A stretch of 64,000 nt of DNA from Escherichia phage TH09, in sequence record MT446387.1; one strand, 5' to 3'. The notes under the pieces are model-generated. The model searched no databases, was not told where the DNA came from, and saw only the letters and a program-made list of their open reading frames with translations. Positions 3,577-33,533 of this stretch are shown here, piece by piece. Every line of letters starts with the position of its first letter. Position 1 is the first letter of the stretch. Position numbers and translations under genes: made by a program.

Positions 3577-3631
3577 CCGCTTTATACCAAGGATGGTATA
3601 ATGGTTCTAAGCCCTTTTAATTGAGATTATT

Positions 3632-4039
3632 ATGAAACAGTTGATAATTAAAAGATTGAATTTATTGATATGTTGTTTATGTATAGCAATTGCATATGGT
3701 TATTATGCTATTAATGATTATATGCATTATAAAGATTATGATGTTACTGTAGTTAATACCTTTACAGGAACTCAAGGAAAGGGGTCTAGTTTATCGTTTA
3801 TTGCCGTATATGAACTAAATGACGGTTATAGATTTAGCGAATATATTTCACCGGAGATGTATTCTTCAATAGAAAAAGGTGATAATATTACTGTAAGTTT
3901 ACGTCCTTTCGACGTAAAACAGACATTGTTTGATAATATTGTTTGGTTCTTTGGAATGGTATTAGTTCAATCTGTGTGTGGTGCTTATATAGTCTGTTCC
4001 ATCTTATTCTGTATATTTAGTAAAATTGAAATTGAGTGA
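3632..4039 (+). CDS. hypothetical membrane protein
   Basis: 135 aa; hydrophobic N- and C-terminal segments. Confidence 0.5.
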   Translation: MKQLIIKRLNLLICCLCIAIAYGYYAINDYMHYKDYDVTVVNTFTGTQGKGSSLSFIAVYELNDGYRFSEYISPEMYSSIEKGDNITVSLRPFDVKQTLFDNIVWFFGMVLVQSVCGAYIVCSILFCIFSKIEIE

Positions 4040-4046
4040 GGAAAAT

Positions 4047-4934
4047 ATGTCAGTAGTAATTAATAATGTCAATGCAGTAATTAAATCTTTAGTTAATAAA
4101 AAATTGAATGAATGGACTGTACTTCGTCGTGGAGAGCCAGATAAATTTTTTCATAGATTTAACCCAACTTTGGATTTGAATGTTATTGACAGAGATGTTC
4201 ATGCAGAAATTTTAGATAAGTTTAAAGTTGATATTGGATTTGGATTAGAAAAACATTTACAGCGAACAAACGGATCTGGAATGAGTTTATCTAATCGCAT
4301 TATGAAAGCACTTAATAAAATTGGAGCATTGTCTCGTATTAACGCGAGTGAAATCCTTCGCAATTATAATAAAGGATACGACCTTTATGGTCGACTAATG
4401 CCGAAATTATCATTTGACCAAATGATTGCGGATTTGTGGGAAAATCAACGACGATTATTAGCATTAGGCGCTCGATTAGCTAAAGGTCTAGATAAACAAA
4501 TGATTTTTAAGACCAATAATACAGAAGACCTTAAATGCTTTAAATTTAGTATTCGCGGAGATGATTATTACATCAGAGCTCGCTCTACAGATTATGTTAA
4601 TATGGGGCATCATCTCTGTTTAGCTTTTGAAGTTTTAAAAGAAGTCGGAACATTAGAATATTCATCTGGTGCAAAATGTCCAATTGGTTCAAGTTGTATT
4701 TTAATTTATCGCCCGGATGAATCCAGTTCAACTAAATTGCCTACAAAACCTGTACCAGTTCGTAGTAACGAAAAACATTCTGAACAAATTGATTATTTTA
4801 ATAAGCAAATTGAAGAGCTGAATATTTCTATTCAACAGTATGACGATGAAATTTTCAGACTATCTGGATTGAGTAGTAAAGCTAAATCTGAGCGTGAAAA
4901 ATTAATTAAAATTGTTGATTTACTTAAATCTTAA
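4047..4934 (+). CDS. hypothetical protein with C-terminal coiled coil
   Basis: GAGGAAA SD before ATG 4047; C-terminal 45 aa heptad-like. Confidence 0.6.
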   Translation: MSVVINNVNAVIKSLVNKKLNEWTVLRRGEPDKFFHRFNPTLDLNVIDRDVHAEILDKFKVDIGFGLEKHLQRTNGSGMSLSNRIMKALNKIGALSRINASEILRNYNKGYDLYGRLMPKLSFDQMIADLWENQRRLLALGARLAKGLDKQMIFKTNNTEDLKCFKFSIRGDDYYIRARSTDYVNMGHHLCLAFEVLKEVGTLEYSSGAKCPIGSSCILIYRPDESSSTKLPTKPVPVRSNEKHSEQIDYFNKQIEELNISIQQYDDEIFRLSGLSSKAKSEREKLIKIVDLLKS

Positions 4935-14298: not shown

Positions 14299-14430
14299 AT
14301 GAATATCAAACGAATGCTTTTTAAGCAGGGGTTATACACTTTAAATGTTACTCCAAAAGGCGATACAACTAAGTGGTCAGTAAATGACTGGATTAAATTT
14401 ATTGATGAAAATGGTAACTGGAAAATTTAA
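14299..14430 (+). CDS. small hypothetical protein
   Basis: GAGGAAA SD before ATG 14299 in frame of track ORF 14215. Confidence 0.4.
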   Translation: MNIKRMLFKQGLYTLNVTPKGDTTKWSVNDWIKFIDENGNWKI

Positions 14431-14631
14431 ATGAATCCTGAATCTAAATTATCGCAACGAATTGCTGAAGCTCGTCGTCAGTTCTTTGAAAATATGATAG
14501 CCCAAGGTATTGATGACGAAGTTTTTCTAAACTGGTTTTGGAATCACAAATATTCAAAATGCTCAGGAGCAATATTAATATCAGCCGCAATGATGTACGA
14601 AGGCTGGAAGGGTGCCAAACAGTTTAGCTAA
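14431..14631 (+). CDS. hypothetical protein
   Basis: 66 aa ORF. Confidence 0.45.
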   Translation: MNPESKLSQRIAEARRQFFENMIAQGIDDEVFLNWFWNHKYSKCSGAILISAAMMYEGWKGAKQFS

Positions 14632-23027: not shown

Positions 23028-23987
23028 ATGATTACCGTAAATGAAAAAGAACACATTCTTGAACAGAAATATCGTCCATCTACTATCGATGAATGTATTC
23101 TTCCCGCCTTTGATAAAGAAACCTTTAAATCTATTACAAGTAAAGGTAAGATTCCACATATTATTCTTCATTCTCCTTCTCCAGGAACAGGTAAAACAAC
23201 TGTAGCAAAAGCATTGTGTCATGATGTAAATGCTGATATGATGTTTGTGAATGGATCAGATTGTAAAATTGATTTCGTTCGTGGTCCTTTGACTAATTTT
23301 GCCAGCGCCGCTTCATTTGATGGTCGTCAAAAAGTAATCGTTATTGATGAATTTGACCGCTCAGGATTAGCAGAGTCTCAGCGACATCTTCGTTCCTTTA
23401 TGGAAGCTTATAGTTCAAACTGTAGTATTATTATTACTGCTAACAATATTGATGGTATTATTAAACCGCTTCAGTCACGCTGTCGAGTTATTACATTCGG
23501 TCAACCAACTGATGAAGATAAAATTGAAATGATGAAGCAGATGATTCGTCGATTGACTGAAATCTGCAAGCATGAAGGAATTGCTATAGCTGATATGAAA
23601 GTTGTAGCAGCTTTGGTTAAAAAGAATTTTCCTGATTTTCGTAAAACTATTGGCGAGCTCGATAGTTATTCATCTAAAGGTGTTTTGGATGCTGGTATTT
23701 TATCACTGGTTACTAACGATCGTGGTGCTATTGATGATGTTCTTGAGTCTCTCAAAAATAAAGGTGTTAAACAACTCAGAGCTTTAGCACCAAAATATGC
23801 AGCTGATTATTCGTGGTTCGTGGGTAAACTTGCCGAAGAAATCTATTCACGTGTAACTCCGCAAAGTATTATTCGTATGTACGAAATTGTTGGCGAAAAT
23901 AATCAGTATCATGGTATTGCAGCTAATACTGAGTTACATTTAGCATATCTTTTCATTCAATTGGCATGCGAAATGCAGTGGAAGTGA
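23028..23987 (+). CDS. 44: clamp loader large subunit gp44
   Basis: 319 aa from ATG 23028 (GAGGAAATT SD); Walker A GTGKTT. Confidence 0.95.
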
Positions 23988-23988
23988 T

Positions 23989-24552
23989 ATGAGCTTATTT
24001 GAAGATGATATTCAATTAAACGAGCATCAAGTTGCTTGGTATTCAAAAGATTGGACAGCTGTCCAATCCGCTGCTGATTCTTTTAAAGAAAAAGCTGAAA
24101 ATGAATTTTTTGAAATAATTGGAGCTATTAATAATAAAACTAAATGCTCTATTGCTCAAAAAGATTATTCAAAATACATGGTTGAGAATGCATTATCACA
24201 ATTTCCTGAATGCATGCCAGCTGTATATGCTATGAATTTAATTGGATCAGGTTTAAGTGATGAAGCCCATTTTAATTATCTGATGGCTGCTGTTCCTCGG
24301 GGTAAAAGATATGGTAAATGGGCAAAACTGGTTGAAGATTCTACCGAAGTATTGATTATTAAGTTACTTGCTAAGCGGTATCAAGTTAATACAAATGATG
24401 CAATTAACTATAAATCAATTCTTACTAAAAATGGAAAACTTCCTTTAGTATTAAAAGAACTAAAAGGTTTAGTCACGGATGATTTTTTGAAAGAAGTGAC
24501 TAAGAACGTAAAAGAACAGAAACAACTCAAAAAACTAGCATTGGAATGGTAA
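23989..24552 (+). CDS. 62: clamp loader small subunit gp62
   Basis: 187 aa; recognised as T4 gp62. Confidence 0.9.
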
Positions 24553-24553
24553 A

Positions 24554-24922
24554 ATGATTGAAATTACTCTTAAAAAACCTGAAGATTTTCTGAAAGTAAA
24601 AGAAACTTTGACTCGTATGGGAATTGCTAATAATAAAGATAAAGTTCTGTATCAGTCCTGTCATATTCTTCAGAAAAAAGGACTATACTATATCGTTCAT
24701 TTTAAAGAAATGCTTCGTATGGATGGTCGCCAAGTTGAAATGACAGAAGAAGATGAAGTTCGTCGTGATTCGATTGCATGGCTATTAGAAGATTGGGGAC
24801 TAATTGAAATCGCTCCCGGTCAAAGAACTTTTATGAAAGACTTAACTAATAACTTCCGAGTTATTTCTTTTAAGCAAAAACATGAATGGAAACTCGTTCC
24901 TAAATATACGATTGGTAATTAA
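24554..24922 (+). CDS. regA: translational repressor RegA
   Basis: 122 aa; recognised as T4 RegA. Confidence 0.9.
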   Translation: MIEITLKKPEDFLKVKETLTRMGIANNKDKVLYQSCHILQKKGLYYIVHFKEMLRMDGRQVEMTEEDEVRRDSIAWLLEDWGLIEIAPGQRTFMKDLTNNFRVISFKQKHEWKLVPKYTIGN

Positions 24923-28920: not shown

Positions 28921-29661
28921 ATGATTAGTGACTCTATGACAGTTGAAGAAATCCGTCTTCATTTGGGGCTTGCATTAAAAGAAAAAGATTTCGTAGTTGA
29001 TAAAACTGGTGTTAAAACTATTGAAATTATTGGCGCATCATTTATAGCAGATGAACCGTTTATTTTTGGCGCTCTTAATGATGAATACATTCAGCGTGAA
29101 CTTGAATGGTATAAATCTAAGAGCTTGTTTGTTAAAGATATTCCAGGTGAAACACCAAAGATTTGGCAGCAGGTAGCATCTTCTAAAGGCGAAATTAACT
29201 CGAATTACGGTTGGGCTATTTGGTCAGAAGATAACTATGCCCAGTATGATATGTGTTTAGCTGAACTTGGTCAAAATCCTGATTCTCGACGTGGTATCAT
29301 GATTTATACTCGTCCATCTATGCAGTTTGACTATAATAAAGATGGTATGTCAGATTTCATGTGTACGAATACAGTACAGTACCTGATTCGTGATAAGAAA
29401 GTCAATGCAGTAGTAAGCATGCGCTCAAATGATGTGGTCTTCGGATTCCGTAATGATTATGCATGGCAAAAATACGTATTAGATAAATTAGTATCTGATT
29501 TGAATGCCGGCGATTCAACTCGTCAGTATAAAGCAGGTTCTATTATATGGAATGTTGGAAGTCTTCATGTATATTCTCGTCATTTTTACTTGGTTGATCA
29601 TTGGTGGAATACTGGCGAAACTCATATTGTGAAAAAAGACTATAAAGGTGAGTGGAAATGA
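28921..29661 (+). CDS. 42: dCMP hydroxymethylase gp42
   Basis: 246 aa; recognised as T4 gp42. Confidence 0.95.
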   Translation: MISDSMTVEEIRLHLGLALKEKDFVVDKTGVKTIEIIGASFIADEPFIFGALNDEYIQRELEWYKSKSLFVKDIPGETPKIWQQVASSKGEINSNYGWAIWSEDNYAQYDMCLAELGQNPDSRRGIMIYTRPSMQFDYNKDGMSDFMCTNTVQYLIRDKKVNAVVSMRSNDVVFGFRNDYAWQKYVLDKLVSDLNAGDSTRQYKAGSIIWNVGSLHVYSRHFYLVDHWWNTGETHIVKKDYKGEWK

Positions 29662-30500
29662 TTCAATTCGTAATTCCGAGCTATCAGCGTGTTGGGGCAG
29701 TTTCTGCCCTTGATATGTTTCCGACTGATTATGAACCACATATTGTAGTGCGTGAACATGAAGAAAAAGCTTATCATGACGCTTATGGGTCTAGAGCTAA
29801 AATTATAGCTATTCCTGATGATGTAAACGGAATTGCCGGTACTCGTAAAGCAATTACTGATATGTATGCAGGTCAACGAATTTGGATGATTGACGATGAT
29901 ACTACTATTCGTATGAGTTCAATGCGAAAAAGAGATGATCGTCGTTGTGTGGATAAAGTCAATCAATTAACCCGTGAACAGTTCTATGAATTGATTCAAT
30001 ACGTTGAAGATGCTATGGATTGCGGGTATTATCACGGTCATGCTCGTCTACCTATTTTTAAAATTACTTCATCTTGGGGTAATTATCGTGAAAATTCATA
30101 TGGATTCACGAATACATGGTATGACCTCGGAAAACTTACGACAGAACAAATTGGGTATGGAAAAATTGATTTGTGCGAAGATATGTATGCATTTCTCAAT
30201 TTAATTAATCAAGGTTATCCGCATTTGGCCTTGTTCAAATATCTGGTTGTATCTGGAAAAGCACAAGCTCCTGGCGGGTGCAGTTCAATTCGCAGTAATT
30301 CTAAACATAATAGAGCGCTTGAGCAGATCAATAGAGAGTTTCCAGAGCAAGCTCGTTGGAAAACTTCTAATATTGAAAAACGAAAATCGTTGGGTGAAGA
30401 AGACGAGCCATTAAAGGTTCTTCGTATGTGTGTTTCACGTAAAGAAAAATCAGAAGCATTTCATAAGTTTAATGCTATTCATCCAATAGCAGTTGATTAA
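29658..30500 (+). CDS. putative DNA glycosyltransferase at the beta-gt locus (not T4 beta-gt type)
   Basis: 280 aa from ATG 29658; DxD-like WMIDDDTT; sits between 42 and uvsX. Confidence 0.55.
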   Translation: MIQFVIPSYQRVGAVSALDMFPTDYEPHIVVREHEEKAYHDAYGSRAKIIAIPDDVNGIAGTRKAITDMYAGQRIWMIDDDTTIRMSSMRKRDDRRCVDKVNQLTREQFYELIQYVEDAMDCGYYHGHARLPIFKITSSWGNYRENSYGFTNTWYDLGKLTTEQIGYGKIDLCEDMYAFLNLINQGYPHLALFKYLVVSGKAQAPGGCSSIRSNSKHNRALEQINREFPEQARWKTSNIEKRKSLGEEDEPLKVLRMCVSRKEKSEAFHKFNAIHPIAVD

Positions 30501-30577
30501 TGCCTAAATTTATTGTGTTATAATTACTCTATCTTTAACCAGTGAGGAAAATATAATGATGCCTATGGAAAAAATGA

Positions 30578-31759
30578 ATGTCTATTGCAGATTTAAAATC
30601 CCGTTTGATTAAAGCTTCCACTTCTAAAATGACTGCTGAACTGACTACATCTAAATTCTTTAATGAAAAGGATGTAATCCGTACAAAAATCCCAATGCTT
30701 AATATTGCTATTTCTGGCGCGATTGATGGCGGTATGCAGTCTGGTTTAACTATTTTCGCAGGGCCTTCTAAACACTTTAAATCAAATATGTCTTTAACTA
30801 TGGTTGCGGCATATTTGAACAAATATCCTGACGCAGTTTGTCTATTCTATGATAGCGAATTTGGTATTACTCCAGCTTATTTGCGATCCATGGGAGTTGA
30901 CCCGGAACGAGTAATTCATACGCCAATTCAGTCAGTTGAACAGCTGAAAATTGATATGGTGAACCAACTTGAAGCTATTGAGCGTGGTGAAAAGGTTATT
31001 GTATTCATCGACTCAATTGGTAATATGGCTTCTAAGAAAGAAACTGAAGATGCCTTGAATGAAAAATCTGTGGCAGATATGACTCGTGCTAAATCACTGA
31101 AGTCATTATTCCGTATTGTTACTCCTTACTTTAGCATTAAAAATATTCCATGTGTTGCGGTTAACCATACAATTGAAACAATTGAAATGTTTAGTAAAAC
31201 CGTGATGACAGGTGGTACAGGCGTAATGTATTCGGCTGATACCGTATTCATTATCGGTAAACGTCAGATTAAAGATGGTTCTGATCTTCAGGGGTATCAA
31301 TTTGTTCTAAATGTAGAAAAATCTCGTACCGTTAAAGAAAAAAGTAAATTCTTTATTGATGTTAAATTTGACGGTGGTATCGATCCTTATTCTGGATTGT
31401 TAGATATGGCTCTAGAATTAGGATTTGTTGTAAAACCTAAAAATGGCTGGTATGCTCGTGAATTTCTTGACGAAGAAACTGGCGAGATGATTCGCGAAGA
31501 AAAATCTTGGCGTGCAAAAGATACCAACTGCACTACATTCTGGGGTCCTTTATTTAAGCATCAACCGTTCCGAGATGCTATTAAACGTGCTTATCAGTTA
31601 GGTGCTATTGATAGTAATGAAATTGTTGAAGCTGAAGTTGATGAATTAATTAACTCAAAAGTTGAAAAATTTAAATCTCCAGAAAGTAAAAGTAAATCAG
31701 CTGCTGATTTAGAAACTGACTTAGAACAGTTAAGTGATATGGAAGAATTTAATGAATAA
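30578..31759 (+). CDS. uvsX: RecA-like recombinase UvsX
   Basis: 393 aa; Walker A GPSKHFKS; recognised as T4 UvsX. Confidence 0.95.
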   Translation: MSIADLKSRLIKASTSKMTAELTTSKFFNEKDVIRTKIPMLNIAISGAIDGGMQSGLTIFAGPSKHFKSNMSLTMVAAYLNKYPDAVCLFYDSEFGITPAYLRSMGVDPERVIHTPIQSVEQLKIDMVNQLEAIERGEKVIVFIDSIGNMASKKETEDALNEKSVADMTRAKSLKSLFRIVTPYFSIKNIPCVAVNHTIETIEMFSKTVMTGGTGVMYSADTVFIIGKRQIKDGSDLQGYQFVLNVEKSRTVKEKSKFFIDVKFDGGIDPYSGLLDMALELGFVVKPKNGWYAREFLDEETGEMIREEKSWRAKDTNCTTFWGPLFKHQPFRDAIKRAYQLGAIDSNEIVEAEVDELINSKVEKFKSPESKSKSAADLETDLEQLSDMEEFNE

Positions 31760-32105: not shown

Positions 32106-33533
32106 GTGGTAGAAATTATTCTTTCTCATCTCATATTTGATCAAGCTTATTTTTCAAAAGTTTGGCCATATATGGATTCAGAATATTTTGAAAGTGGTCC
32201 AGCTAAAAATACATTCAAATTAATTAAATCTCATGTTAACGAGTATCATAGCGTTCCATCTATTAATGCGTTAAATGTTGCGTTAGAAAATAGTTCATTT
32301 ACTGAAACAGAATATTCTGGTGTAAAAACACTTATTTCAAAACTGGCCGATTCTCCGGAAGACCATAGCTGGTTAGTAAAAGAAACAGAAAAATATGTTC
32401 AGCAAAGGGCGATGTTTAATGCTACGTCTAAAATAATCGAAATTCAAACTAATGCTGAGCTTCCTCCGGAAAAACGAAATAAGAAAATGCCGGATGTTGG
32501 TGCTATTCCTGACATCATGCGACAAGCATTATCAATTTCATTTGATAGTTATGTTGGTCATGATTGGATGGATGACTACGAAGCACGCTGGCTATCTTAT
32601 ATGAATAAAGCTCGTAAGGTTCCATTTAAACTCAAAATTCTAAATAAAATTACTAAAGGCGGAGCTGAAACTGGAACACTGAACGTTTTAATGGCTGGTG
32701 TTAACGTTGGTAAGTCATTAGGTCTGTGTTCATTGGCAGCAGATTATTTGCAGCTCGGACATAATGTTCTTTACATTTCCATGGAAATGGCAGAAGAAGT
32801 CTGTGCTAAACGTATTGATGCTAATATGCTTGACGTTTCTCTTGATGACATTGACGATGGGCATATTTCTTACGCTGAATATAAAGGAAAAATGGAAAAA
32901 TGGCGTGAGAAATCTACTCTCGGCCGTTTAATCGTTAAACAGTATCCTACTGGTGGAGCAGACGCTAATACATTTCGATCGCTTTTAAACGAATTAAAGC
33001 TCAAGAAGAATTTTGTTCCAACAATCATTATTGTTGACTATCTAGGTATTTGTAAATCTTGCCGCATCAGAGTTTATTCAGAAAATAGTTACACAACTGT
33101 TAAAGCCATCGCAGAAGAATTGCGTGCTCTTGCTGTTGAAACCGAAACTGTTCTTTGGACCGCAGCACAGGTTGGTAAACAAGCTTGGGATTCTTCTGAT
33201 GTTAACATGAGCGATATTGCAGAATCTGCCGGTCTTCCAGCAACAGCCGATTTTATGCTTGCGGTCATTGAAACTGAGGAGTTAGCAGCTGCTGAACAAC
33301 AACTCATTAAGCAAATCAAATCACGATATGGCGATAAGAATAAGTGGAATAAGTTTTTGATGGGTGTTCAAAAGGGAAATCAGAAATGGGTAGAAATTGA
33401 ACAAGATTCTACTCCAACTGAAGTGAGTGAAGTAGCAGGTTCACAACAGATTCAGGCTGAACAGAATCGCTATCAAAGAAATGAATCCACTCGAGCACAG
33501 TTAGATGCTTTGGCAAATGAATTAAAATTTTAG
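32106..33533 (+). CDS. 41: replicative DNA helicase gp41
   Basis: 475 aa; GTG start; Walker A GVNVGKS. Confidence 0.95.
   Translation: MVEIILSHLIFDQAYFSKVWPYMDSEYFESGPAKNTFKLIKSHVNEYHSVPSINALNVALENSSFTETEYSGVKTLISKLADSPEDHSWLVKETEKYVQQRAMFNATSKIIEIQTNAELPPEKRNKKMPDVGAIPDIMRQALSISFDSYVGHDWMDDYEARWLSYMNKARKVPFKLKILNKITKGGAETGTLNVLMAGVNVGKSLGLCSLAADYLQLGHNVLYISMEMAEEVCAKRIDANMLDVSLDDIDDGHISYAEYKGKMEKWREKSTLGRLIVKQYPTGGADANTFRSLLNELKLKKNFVPTIIIVDYLGICKSCRIRVYSENSYTTVKAIAEELRALAVETETVLWTAAQVGKQAWDSSDVNMSDIAESAGLPATADFMLAVIETEELAAAEQQLIKQIKSRYGDKNKWNKFLMGVQKGNQKWVEIEQDSTPTEVSEVAGSQQIQAEQNRYQRNESTRAQLDALANELKF

Follow-up and report, generated by a model that had tools for sequence, protein, structure and literature searches.

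The stretch of DNA analyzed here, 64,000 nucleotides (nt) of Escherichia phage TH09 (MT446387.1) and referred to below as the window, was classed as T2/T6-like Tequatrovirus and carries at 30556-30612 a short upstream open reading frame (uORF) that overlaps the start of the recombinase gene uvsX. The genes of this locus lie on the plus strand, as do the promoter and leader elements described below, in the order gene 42 (28921-29661), a beta-glucosyl-HMC-alpha-glucosyltransferase gene (ending at 30500), uvsX (30578-31759), gene 40 and gene 41 (32106-33533). The uvsX product is a RecA-like recombinase of 393 amino acids with an N-terminus, MSIADLKSRLIK, that aligns with the UvsX N-terminus of T4 and other genera, and its start at 30578 is called in the same place in the RefSeq record identical to the queried stretch. 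The glucosyltransferase stop codon and uvsX are separated by a 77-nt gap, in which TAATGCCTAA, 11 nt and TATAAT (together 30498-30524) are followed by ATCTTTAACCAGTGAGGAAAATATA-ATG-ATG-CCT-ATG-GAA-AAA-ATG-A-ATG, with the last ATG being that of uvsX.

The TAATGCCTAA element (30498-30507) resembles a MotA box and overlaps the glucosyltransferase stop codon. The published MotA consensus is (a/t)(a/t)(a/t)TGCTTtA at 12±1 bp from the -10 element (PMC2988021); TAATGCCTAA agrees at five of seven core positions and lies 11 bp before TATAAT, as expected of a MotA-type middle promoter, although this is a prediction at the sequence level. An extended -10 element, TGtTATAAT, is present at 30516-30524. In leader alignments its TATAAT is nearly invariant, and GCT(T/G/C)T is found at the MotA-box position in other genera too. 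From the promoter spacing only, we infer a transcription start at approximately 30531, which would give uvsX an unstructured leader of 47 nt (30531-30577) with conservation at the nucleotide level. Transcripts reading through from upstream genes would carry the uORF regardless of where this promoter starts.

An earlier note on this DNA had described a strong Shine-Dalgarno (SD) sequence followed by an ATG at 30556 that opens an 18-codon ORF, with the uvsX ATG lying inside this ORF in a different frame and served by a weak SD. All three features are present. The SD region of the uORF is AGTGAGGAAA (30541-30550), of which the GAGG core (30544-30547) is separated from the ATG at 30556 by an 8-nt A/U spacer that includes ATATA; this places the SD within the 5-10 nt before the start codon by which start sites were judged. 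The uORF comprises 18 codons and a stop codon at 30610-30612 and would encode MMPMEKMNVYCRFKIPFD. Its ATG precedes that of uvsX by 22 nt. The two ORFs share the first 35 nt of uvsX in different frames, so that codons 8-18 of the uORF are uvsX codons 1-12 read out of frame. The uvsX SD is only a GGA (30567-30569), 8 nt before the uvsX ATG and within an ATGGAA block (30565-30570) of which ATGG is invariant among the leaders compared below. The predicted energy of pairing with the 3' end of 16S rRNA favors the uORF start (-6.5 kcal/mol) over that of uvsX (-3.3 kcal/mol).

Conservation of this arrangement was examined across T4-like phages. A BLAST search with 30440-30700 matched 1028 phage records; alignments were made of nine genomes and then of 29 distinct leaders, and UvsX loci were gathered from IMG/VR and named phages, with 31 representative leaders tabulated. 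The 29-leader alignment is conserved from the -10 box through the uvsX ATG, and TGAG, AATAT-ATG, ATGG and the uvsX ATG are invariant. Identity between the leader of the window and those of other genera is 0.65-0.88, as against 0.35-0.50 at fourfold-degenerate sites in the first 480 nt of uvsX, which are saturated, and 0.26-0.50 in the region further upstream. The excess of leader identity over fourfold sites indicates purifying selection on the leader comparable to that on coding positions. An upstream start codon is present 12-35 nt (mostly 19-28 nt) before the uvsX ATG in 31/31 representative leaders, as ATG in 29 and as TTG in those of Serratia PS2 and Pseudomonas PspYZU05, and is preceded in all 31 by GAG(G) and an A/U spacer. 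This combination of upstream SD and start codon was found in at least 15 lineages, with leaders drawn from Tequatrovirus, Gaprivervirus, Karamvirus, Dhakavirus, Mosigvirus, Kanagawavirus and the Pseudotevenvirus RB43 as well as Klebsiella phages, Proteus Pm5461, Acinetobacter 133, Serratia PS2 and Pseudomonas PspYZU05. The start site persists where the leader has diverged or a different gene lies upstream, as in RB43 (in which uvsX is preceded by gene 43 and a terminator), Klebsiella phages of the Slopekvirus type, Proteus Pm5461 and Acinetobacter phage 133. When uvsX leaders were retrieved by a pattern search blind to the upstream ATG, that ATG was intact in 18/18. GGA(A/T) is the sole element in common with more distant leaders.

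Across phages, the sequence immediately preceding the uvsX leader is highly changeable. It is occupied by an HNH Mob-like homing endonuclease gene in Acinetobacter phage 133 (L033) and by a split glucosyltransferase gene plus extra sequence in Escherichia phage 236Ecol005PP (L004), and in both phages the leader survives; in T4 the insertion there is segA. In Escherichia phage IME08 (L007, HM071924.1; 460-465) the deposited uvsX coding sequence begins with ATA, one codon before the conserved ATG, probably through an annotation slip. The uORF is annotated in none of the records inspected, and in the record of Citrobacter phage Miller the uvsX ribosome-binding site (RBS) is annotated as a 3-nt GGA only.

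Conservation of the start site does not extend to the ORF that it opens. Owing to insertions and deletions of 1-2 nt, all three frames relative to uvsX are represented among the uORFs, whose peptides, of 3-32 codons, are unrelated (MMPMEK..., METYGI, MEINGKY, MVTNGKI, MRVYKPEK, MFVIFKG and MET among them), indicating that selection acts on the start site, and on the GGA(A) block, and not on a protein. Within Tequatrovirus itself, a close relative of the phage studied here (L011, IMGVR_UViG_3300045988_128797) has an A-run ahead of the uvsX ATG that is longer by one A, which shifts the uORF frame and moves its stop from +32 to +16, so that frame and stop appear unconstrained even within this genus. 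In approximately 60% of lineages the uORF stop falls between -14 and +10 of the uvsX ATG, and the stop/start junctions of relatives include TAA-ATG (RB43), TGA-ATG, TAATG, TAA-TGA-ATG, TAATGAATG and, in RB69-type phages, AATGTCTGA.

The uORF start looks like a genuine, standard T-even translation initiation region (TIR). In the window, GTGAGGAAAAT-ATG or GTGAGAAAAAT-ATG also starts long ORFs at 4047, 28516, 56254 and 41556, and the 17-mer GTGAGNAAAATATNATG precedes many long ORFs in other phages of IMG/VR. This 17-mer was accordingly rejected as a uvsX-specific motif; that it is a generic phage TIR favors a genuine start site over a special motif. The uvsX SD, in contrast, is an unusual one: it is GGA (-3.3 kcal/mol) wherever the uORF exists, whereas in T4-like phages lacking a uORF (more distant relatives among L056-L089 and L222-L258) it reaches -5 to -10 kcal/mol. 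A GGA-only SD of -3.3 kcal/mol is found elsewhere in the window at gene 62 (23989), regA (24554), an ORF at 14431 and gene 40 (31752), and these four genes start 1-5 nt from, or overlap, the preceding stop codon (23985-23991, 24550-24556, 14428-14433 and 31752-31759, respectively), an arrangement that is the classical layout of translational coupling. The weak downstream RBS typical of coupling is present at uvsX and is equal in strength to those of genes 62, regA and 40. A stop codon near or overlapping the downstream start, the other mark of coupling, is seen in many relatives and not in the window, where the uORF stop lies 32 nt past the A of the uvsX ATG.

RNA folding revealed no significant or conserved structure in the leader. 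Folded as a single sequence, it did no better than shuffled sequences (z = 0.25), an RNAalifold consensus across seven genera contained 0 pairs, and no Rfam 15 covariance model matched 30300-30800 at E <= 1. No terminator-like site was found downstream of the leader ORF and no alternative hairpins in the consensus fold. The lack of structure led to rejection of a riboswitch or attenuator and of an unmasking of a buried uvsX start. The uvsX TIR was approximately 0.6 unpaired in every context folded. In the partition function of read-through RNA, 30510-30528 (promoter spacer and -10) pairs with 30541-30559 (uORF SD and AUG) with probabilities of 0.7-0.87. A hairpin hiding the uORF start in such RNA, comparable to those of T4 genes e and soc, was rejected, as the stem is weak (-7.8 kcal/mol, z = -1.1) and unconserved in other genera.

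The earlier note had suggested comparison with the uvsX leader of T4. This was made and proved uninformative, since in T4 that leader has been replaced by segA. The T4 sequence upstream of uvsX, ending ...CTACTATAAGGTATTAT-ATG, belongs to the 3' end of a GIY-YIG-type ORF of 225 codons, namely segA, which is known to lie between beta-gt and uvsX (PMC2988022). Directly upstream of segA is TTCATCGAATAGCAGTTGATTAATG, near-identical to 30481-30502 of the window, i.e. the 3' end of the alpha-glucosyltransferase gene; segA thus replaced exactly the promoter and leader of uvsX. T4 uvsX has an AAGG SD of its own overlapping the segA stop codon, with TAAGGTATTAT-ATG straight after that stop, so the leader is dispensable once replaced by another TIR. 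The MotA-dependent middle promoter PuvsX of T4 lies inside segA and starts approximately 200 nt before uvsX (PMC2988021); a MotA-type middle promoter is thus a likeness between T4 and the window, where it is predicted, whereas the location of the promoter in segA and the absence of the leader set T4 apart. That decades of work on T4 did not reveal the leader is explained by its replacement there. In the record of T4 GT7 (L090, KJ477686.1, 23400-25800; minus strand) the TTCATCGAATAGCAGTTGATTAATG remnant of the T2-type glucosyltransferase gene is at approximately 845-820, though T4 encodes beta-gt instead, and segA, at approximately 834-157, is unannotated. On the same strand, the stretch 960-862 between beta-gt and the segA region holds a copy of the leader's 5' portion (TATCTTTAACCGGTGGAATAA-ATG), followed by an unannotated 24-codon ORF for a hydrophobic peptide, MLGPLLLIIGLGLFAFWDFFCYID.

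Within a single genome the uORF is hardly beyond chance. An ATG with an equal or better SD occurred in 2.4% of shuffled 47-nt leaders and in 4.0% of random 47-nt stretches of the window, so that a few cases are expected among approximately 100 genes, and such an upstream short ORF was seen at 2/109 long ORFs in the window. The second of these, a mini-ORF at 3601-3624 with its ATG at 3601, was rejected as a further uORF: it sits in the gap (3578-3631) that precedes the ORF at 3632, inside a sequence resembling a MotA-type promoter (GCTTTA and, after 12 bp, a TATAAT that ends at 3602) whose TATAATG, with AAGGA in the spacer, mimics an SD and ATG. It is comparison between phages that indicates the uvsX uORF is not a product of chance, because its start site is present in every leader-bearing relative examined and the leader is conserved far above neutral expectation.

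Taken together, these data favor the interpretation, to which we assign a probability of roughly 0.5, that the uORF is a translated, cis-acting leader ORF governing ribosome access to the weak uvsX start. Under this model the main point of ribosome entry would be the uORF TIR (GAGG, A/U spacer and AUG), which lies approximately 25 nt into the MotA-type transcript as predicted. An initiating ribosome covers mRNA to about +15. One positioned at 30556 would therefore cover the uvsX GGA at +11 to +13, and simultaneous occupancy of both starts would be impossible. Given this shared footprint, uvsX initiation would be set by ribosomes that load on, and translate, the uORF. In relatives where the uORF stops at the uvsX ATG, the terminating ribosome would be placed to reinitiate, the classical layout. 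In the phage studied here the ribosome would run 11 codons beyond the uvsX ATG, and uvsX might be reached by back-scanning, or in the gaps between successive uORF ribosomes. Back-scanning after termination is known in principle from work on RNA phages. On this model it is the act of upstream initiation that would matter and not the peptide. We infer not only translation of the uORF but also the sign and the size of its effect on UvsX. As to the sign, we lean towards a positive, ribosome-delivering role over a dampening or competitive one, because the weak uvsX SD is co-conserved with the uORF and mirrors those of coupled genes in the same genome.

Several observations weigh against this interpretation. 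In the phage studied here the uORF stop is 32 nt past the uvsX ATG, a geometry less favorable for termination-reinitiation, and in several other lineages it is 16-77 nt inside uvsX, so that adjacent termination-reinitiation is no universal mechanism. The uORF SD is only GAG in most genera (-2.2 to -2.8 kcal/mol) and there does not exceed that of uvsX. The invariant TGAG, AATAT and ATGG go beyond what an SD and start codon need, hinting at an additional or different constraint. T4 manages without the leader by use of its own AAGG SD. Finally, in one metagenomic, Proteus-phage-like relative (L036, IMGVR_UViG_2706796082_000001) the uORF has lost its stop codon and is fused in frame to uvsX; at approximately 1474-1500 of that sequence GGATAA has become GGAACA, which predicts a 9-residue N-terminal extension (MFVIFKGTK-MSDL...) if the upstream ATG is used. 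The suggestion in the earlier note that uvsX is tuned by the uORF is therefore upheld in part: a genuine-looking and conserved TIR and a weak uvsX GGA speak for it, and the position of the uORF stop in this phage speaks against it.

The alternative that survives best, although we consider it unlikely, is that the leader serves chiefly as the operator of an RNA-binding repressor, for which RegA is the obvious candidate. The upstream AUG would be kept as part of the binding site, and repression there or at the uvsX AUG would stop UvsX synthesis. The RegA sites of T4 and RB69 have been described as unstructured and A+U rich and as containing an AUG and, on the 5' side, a poly(A) tract (PMC3014915). 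The leader is likewise unstructured, and AAAAUAUAAUGAUG (30548-30561) and GGAAAAAAUGAAUG fit the published description, a loose criterion that many TIRs fit; AAAAUAUAAUGAUG matches the dexA operator AAAAUUUAAUGUUU at 11/14 positions (PMC3014915), and UGAGGAAA..AUGAU is similar to the gene 44 and rIIA TIRs in the window. Such an operator is also favored by invariant positions that go past the requirements of an SD and AUG. The specificity of RegA is however so loose that nearly any T-even TIR resembles a site, the likeness seen here being common to most of them, and the candidate site belongs to the uORF and not to the gene that would be regulated. The name uvsX is absent from the text of the RegA review, no paper was found tying RegA to uvsX regulation, and the papers searched contained neither RegA-binding nor regA-mutant results for uvsX of any phage. 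An operator would, moreover, be compatible with translation of the uORF. In a more specific form, the uORF start would be a remote operator at which RegA or another factor, bound to the invariant UGAG-A-AAUAU-AUG...AUGGAA, blocks ribosome loading and provides a timed shut-off of uvsX in most T4-like phages, a control erased from T4 by segA; this we hold to be doubtful, and less probable than either the simpler operator or the stabilizer considered next.

SD-like sequences that stabilize the 5' ends of transcripts are known in Bacillus mRNAs. By analogy, the upstream SD and AUG could be a 5' ribosome-binding stabilizer acting against 5'-end-dependent decay, or a standby site raising the local concentration of 30S subunits, with translation of the ORF irrelevant. 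The proximity of the start site to the predicted 5' end (approximately 25 nt) and its conservation, when ORF length, frame and stop are not conserved, are consistent with this. A pure SD stabilizer, however, needs no start codon, yet one is always present, and the RB43 leader follows a terminator with no MotA-type promoter at the same distance, so that a conserved spacing from the 5' end is not demonstrable. We regard this explanation too as unlikely, placing it second among the alternatives.

Less probable still is that the uORF is a neutral by-product and that the leader is kept for a reason at the DNA level, for example a second promoter with a -10 TATAAT at 30552-30557 whose tail, as TATAATG, supplies the ATG. 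TATAAT, TATTAT or TATGAT overlaps the upstream ATG in most leaders, the similar TATAATG at 3596-3603 belongs to a clear MotA-type promoter, and an SD plus ATG arises by chance in 2-4% of leaders. The candidate promoter at 30552-30557 was nevertheless rejected for want of an acceptable upstream element: no MotA box or -35 was found at 12±1 bp, TCTTTAA having approximately 4/7 core positions here and 3/7 in other genera. A promoter scan gave no plus-strand match in the leader, the sole match on that strand being at 30004-30032, and leaders without TAnnnT (CATTATG in phage 133 and TCTAATG in L221) retain the SD and ATG.

A split RBS, in which the SD at 30544 serves the uvsX AUG and a hairpin shortens the 30-nt spacing, has precedent in T4 genes 38 and 25, where a strong SD likewise lies 22-30 nt before the AUG of a T-even phage gene (PMC3014915). 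The uvsX AUG is weakly served and lies 30 nt from a strong SD, but between the two there is no stable or conserved hairpin (z = 0.25; 0 consensus pairs), and, unlike in genes 38 and 25, the SD is already followed by a correctly spaced AUG of its own; this explanation was rejected as very improbable. The least probable, that the uORF encodes a functional 18-residue micropeptide, was rejected for lack of peptide conservation: the start site is good and every close relative has an intact ORF, but peptide sequence, length (3-32 codons) and frame vary freely between lineages.

Among known systems, the uORF would work most like translational coupling from a leader ORF, although strict adjacency fails in this phage. 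It shares with the termination-reinitiation systems of T4 44-62-regA, the E. coli trp junctions and MS2 coat/lysis a weak downstream SD (here GGA, as at genes 62 and regA) and an upstream ORF with its own start and, in many relatives, a stop codon that abuts or overlaps the uvsX ATG. It differs in that the stop is 32 nt downstream in this phage and in that the upstream partner is not a gene but a leader ORF of 3-32 codons without a conserved product. Leader peptides and minigenes such as ermC, tnaC, secM and trpL are likewise short, cis-acting 5'-leader ORFs with their own SD that overlap the main RBS. The uvsX leader nevertheless lacks a conserved arrest peptide, a regulatory codon run, alternative hairpins and an attenuator terminator, and with unrelated peptides in three frames and no terminator or consensus structure it does not behave as a peptide-dependent leader. 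None of the papers searched connects uvsX with a uORF, with a leader peptide or with such translational coupling, and a search for ribosome-profiling or toeprint data on a leader-bearing phage returned none.

These data point to a leader ORF that precedes uvsX in most T4-like phages and is deeply conserved, yet unannotated and apparently undescribed. For annotators and engineers of these phages, the strong RBS upstream of uvsX does not belong to uvsX. With segA, a mobile element has rewired the expression signals of its essential neighbor. In T4-type phages the central recombinase is UvsX, whose ratio to gp32 and UvsY matters for recombination-dependent replication. The uORF probably helps to set the amount of recombinase made, a familiar kind of translational control, and as such would represent a widely shared control point for UvsX, from T2 and T6 to RB43, Acinetobacter 133 and the Proteus, Serratia and Pseudomonas phages.

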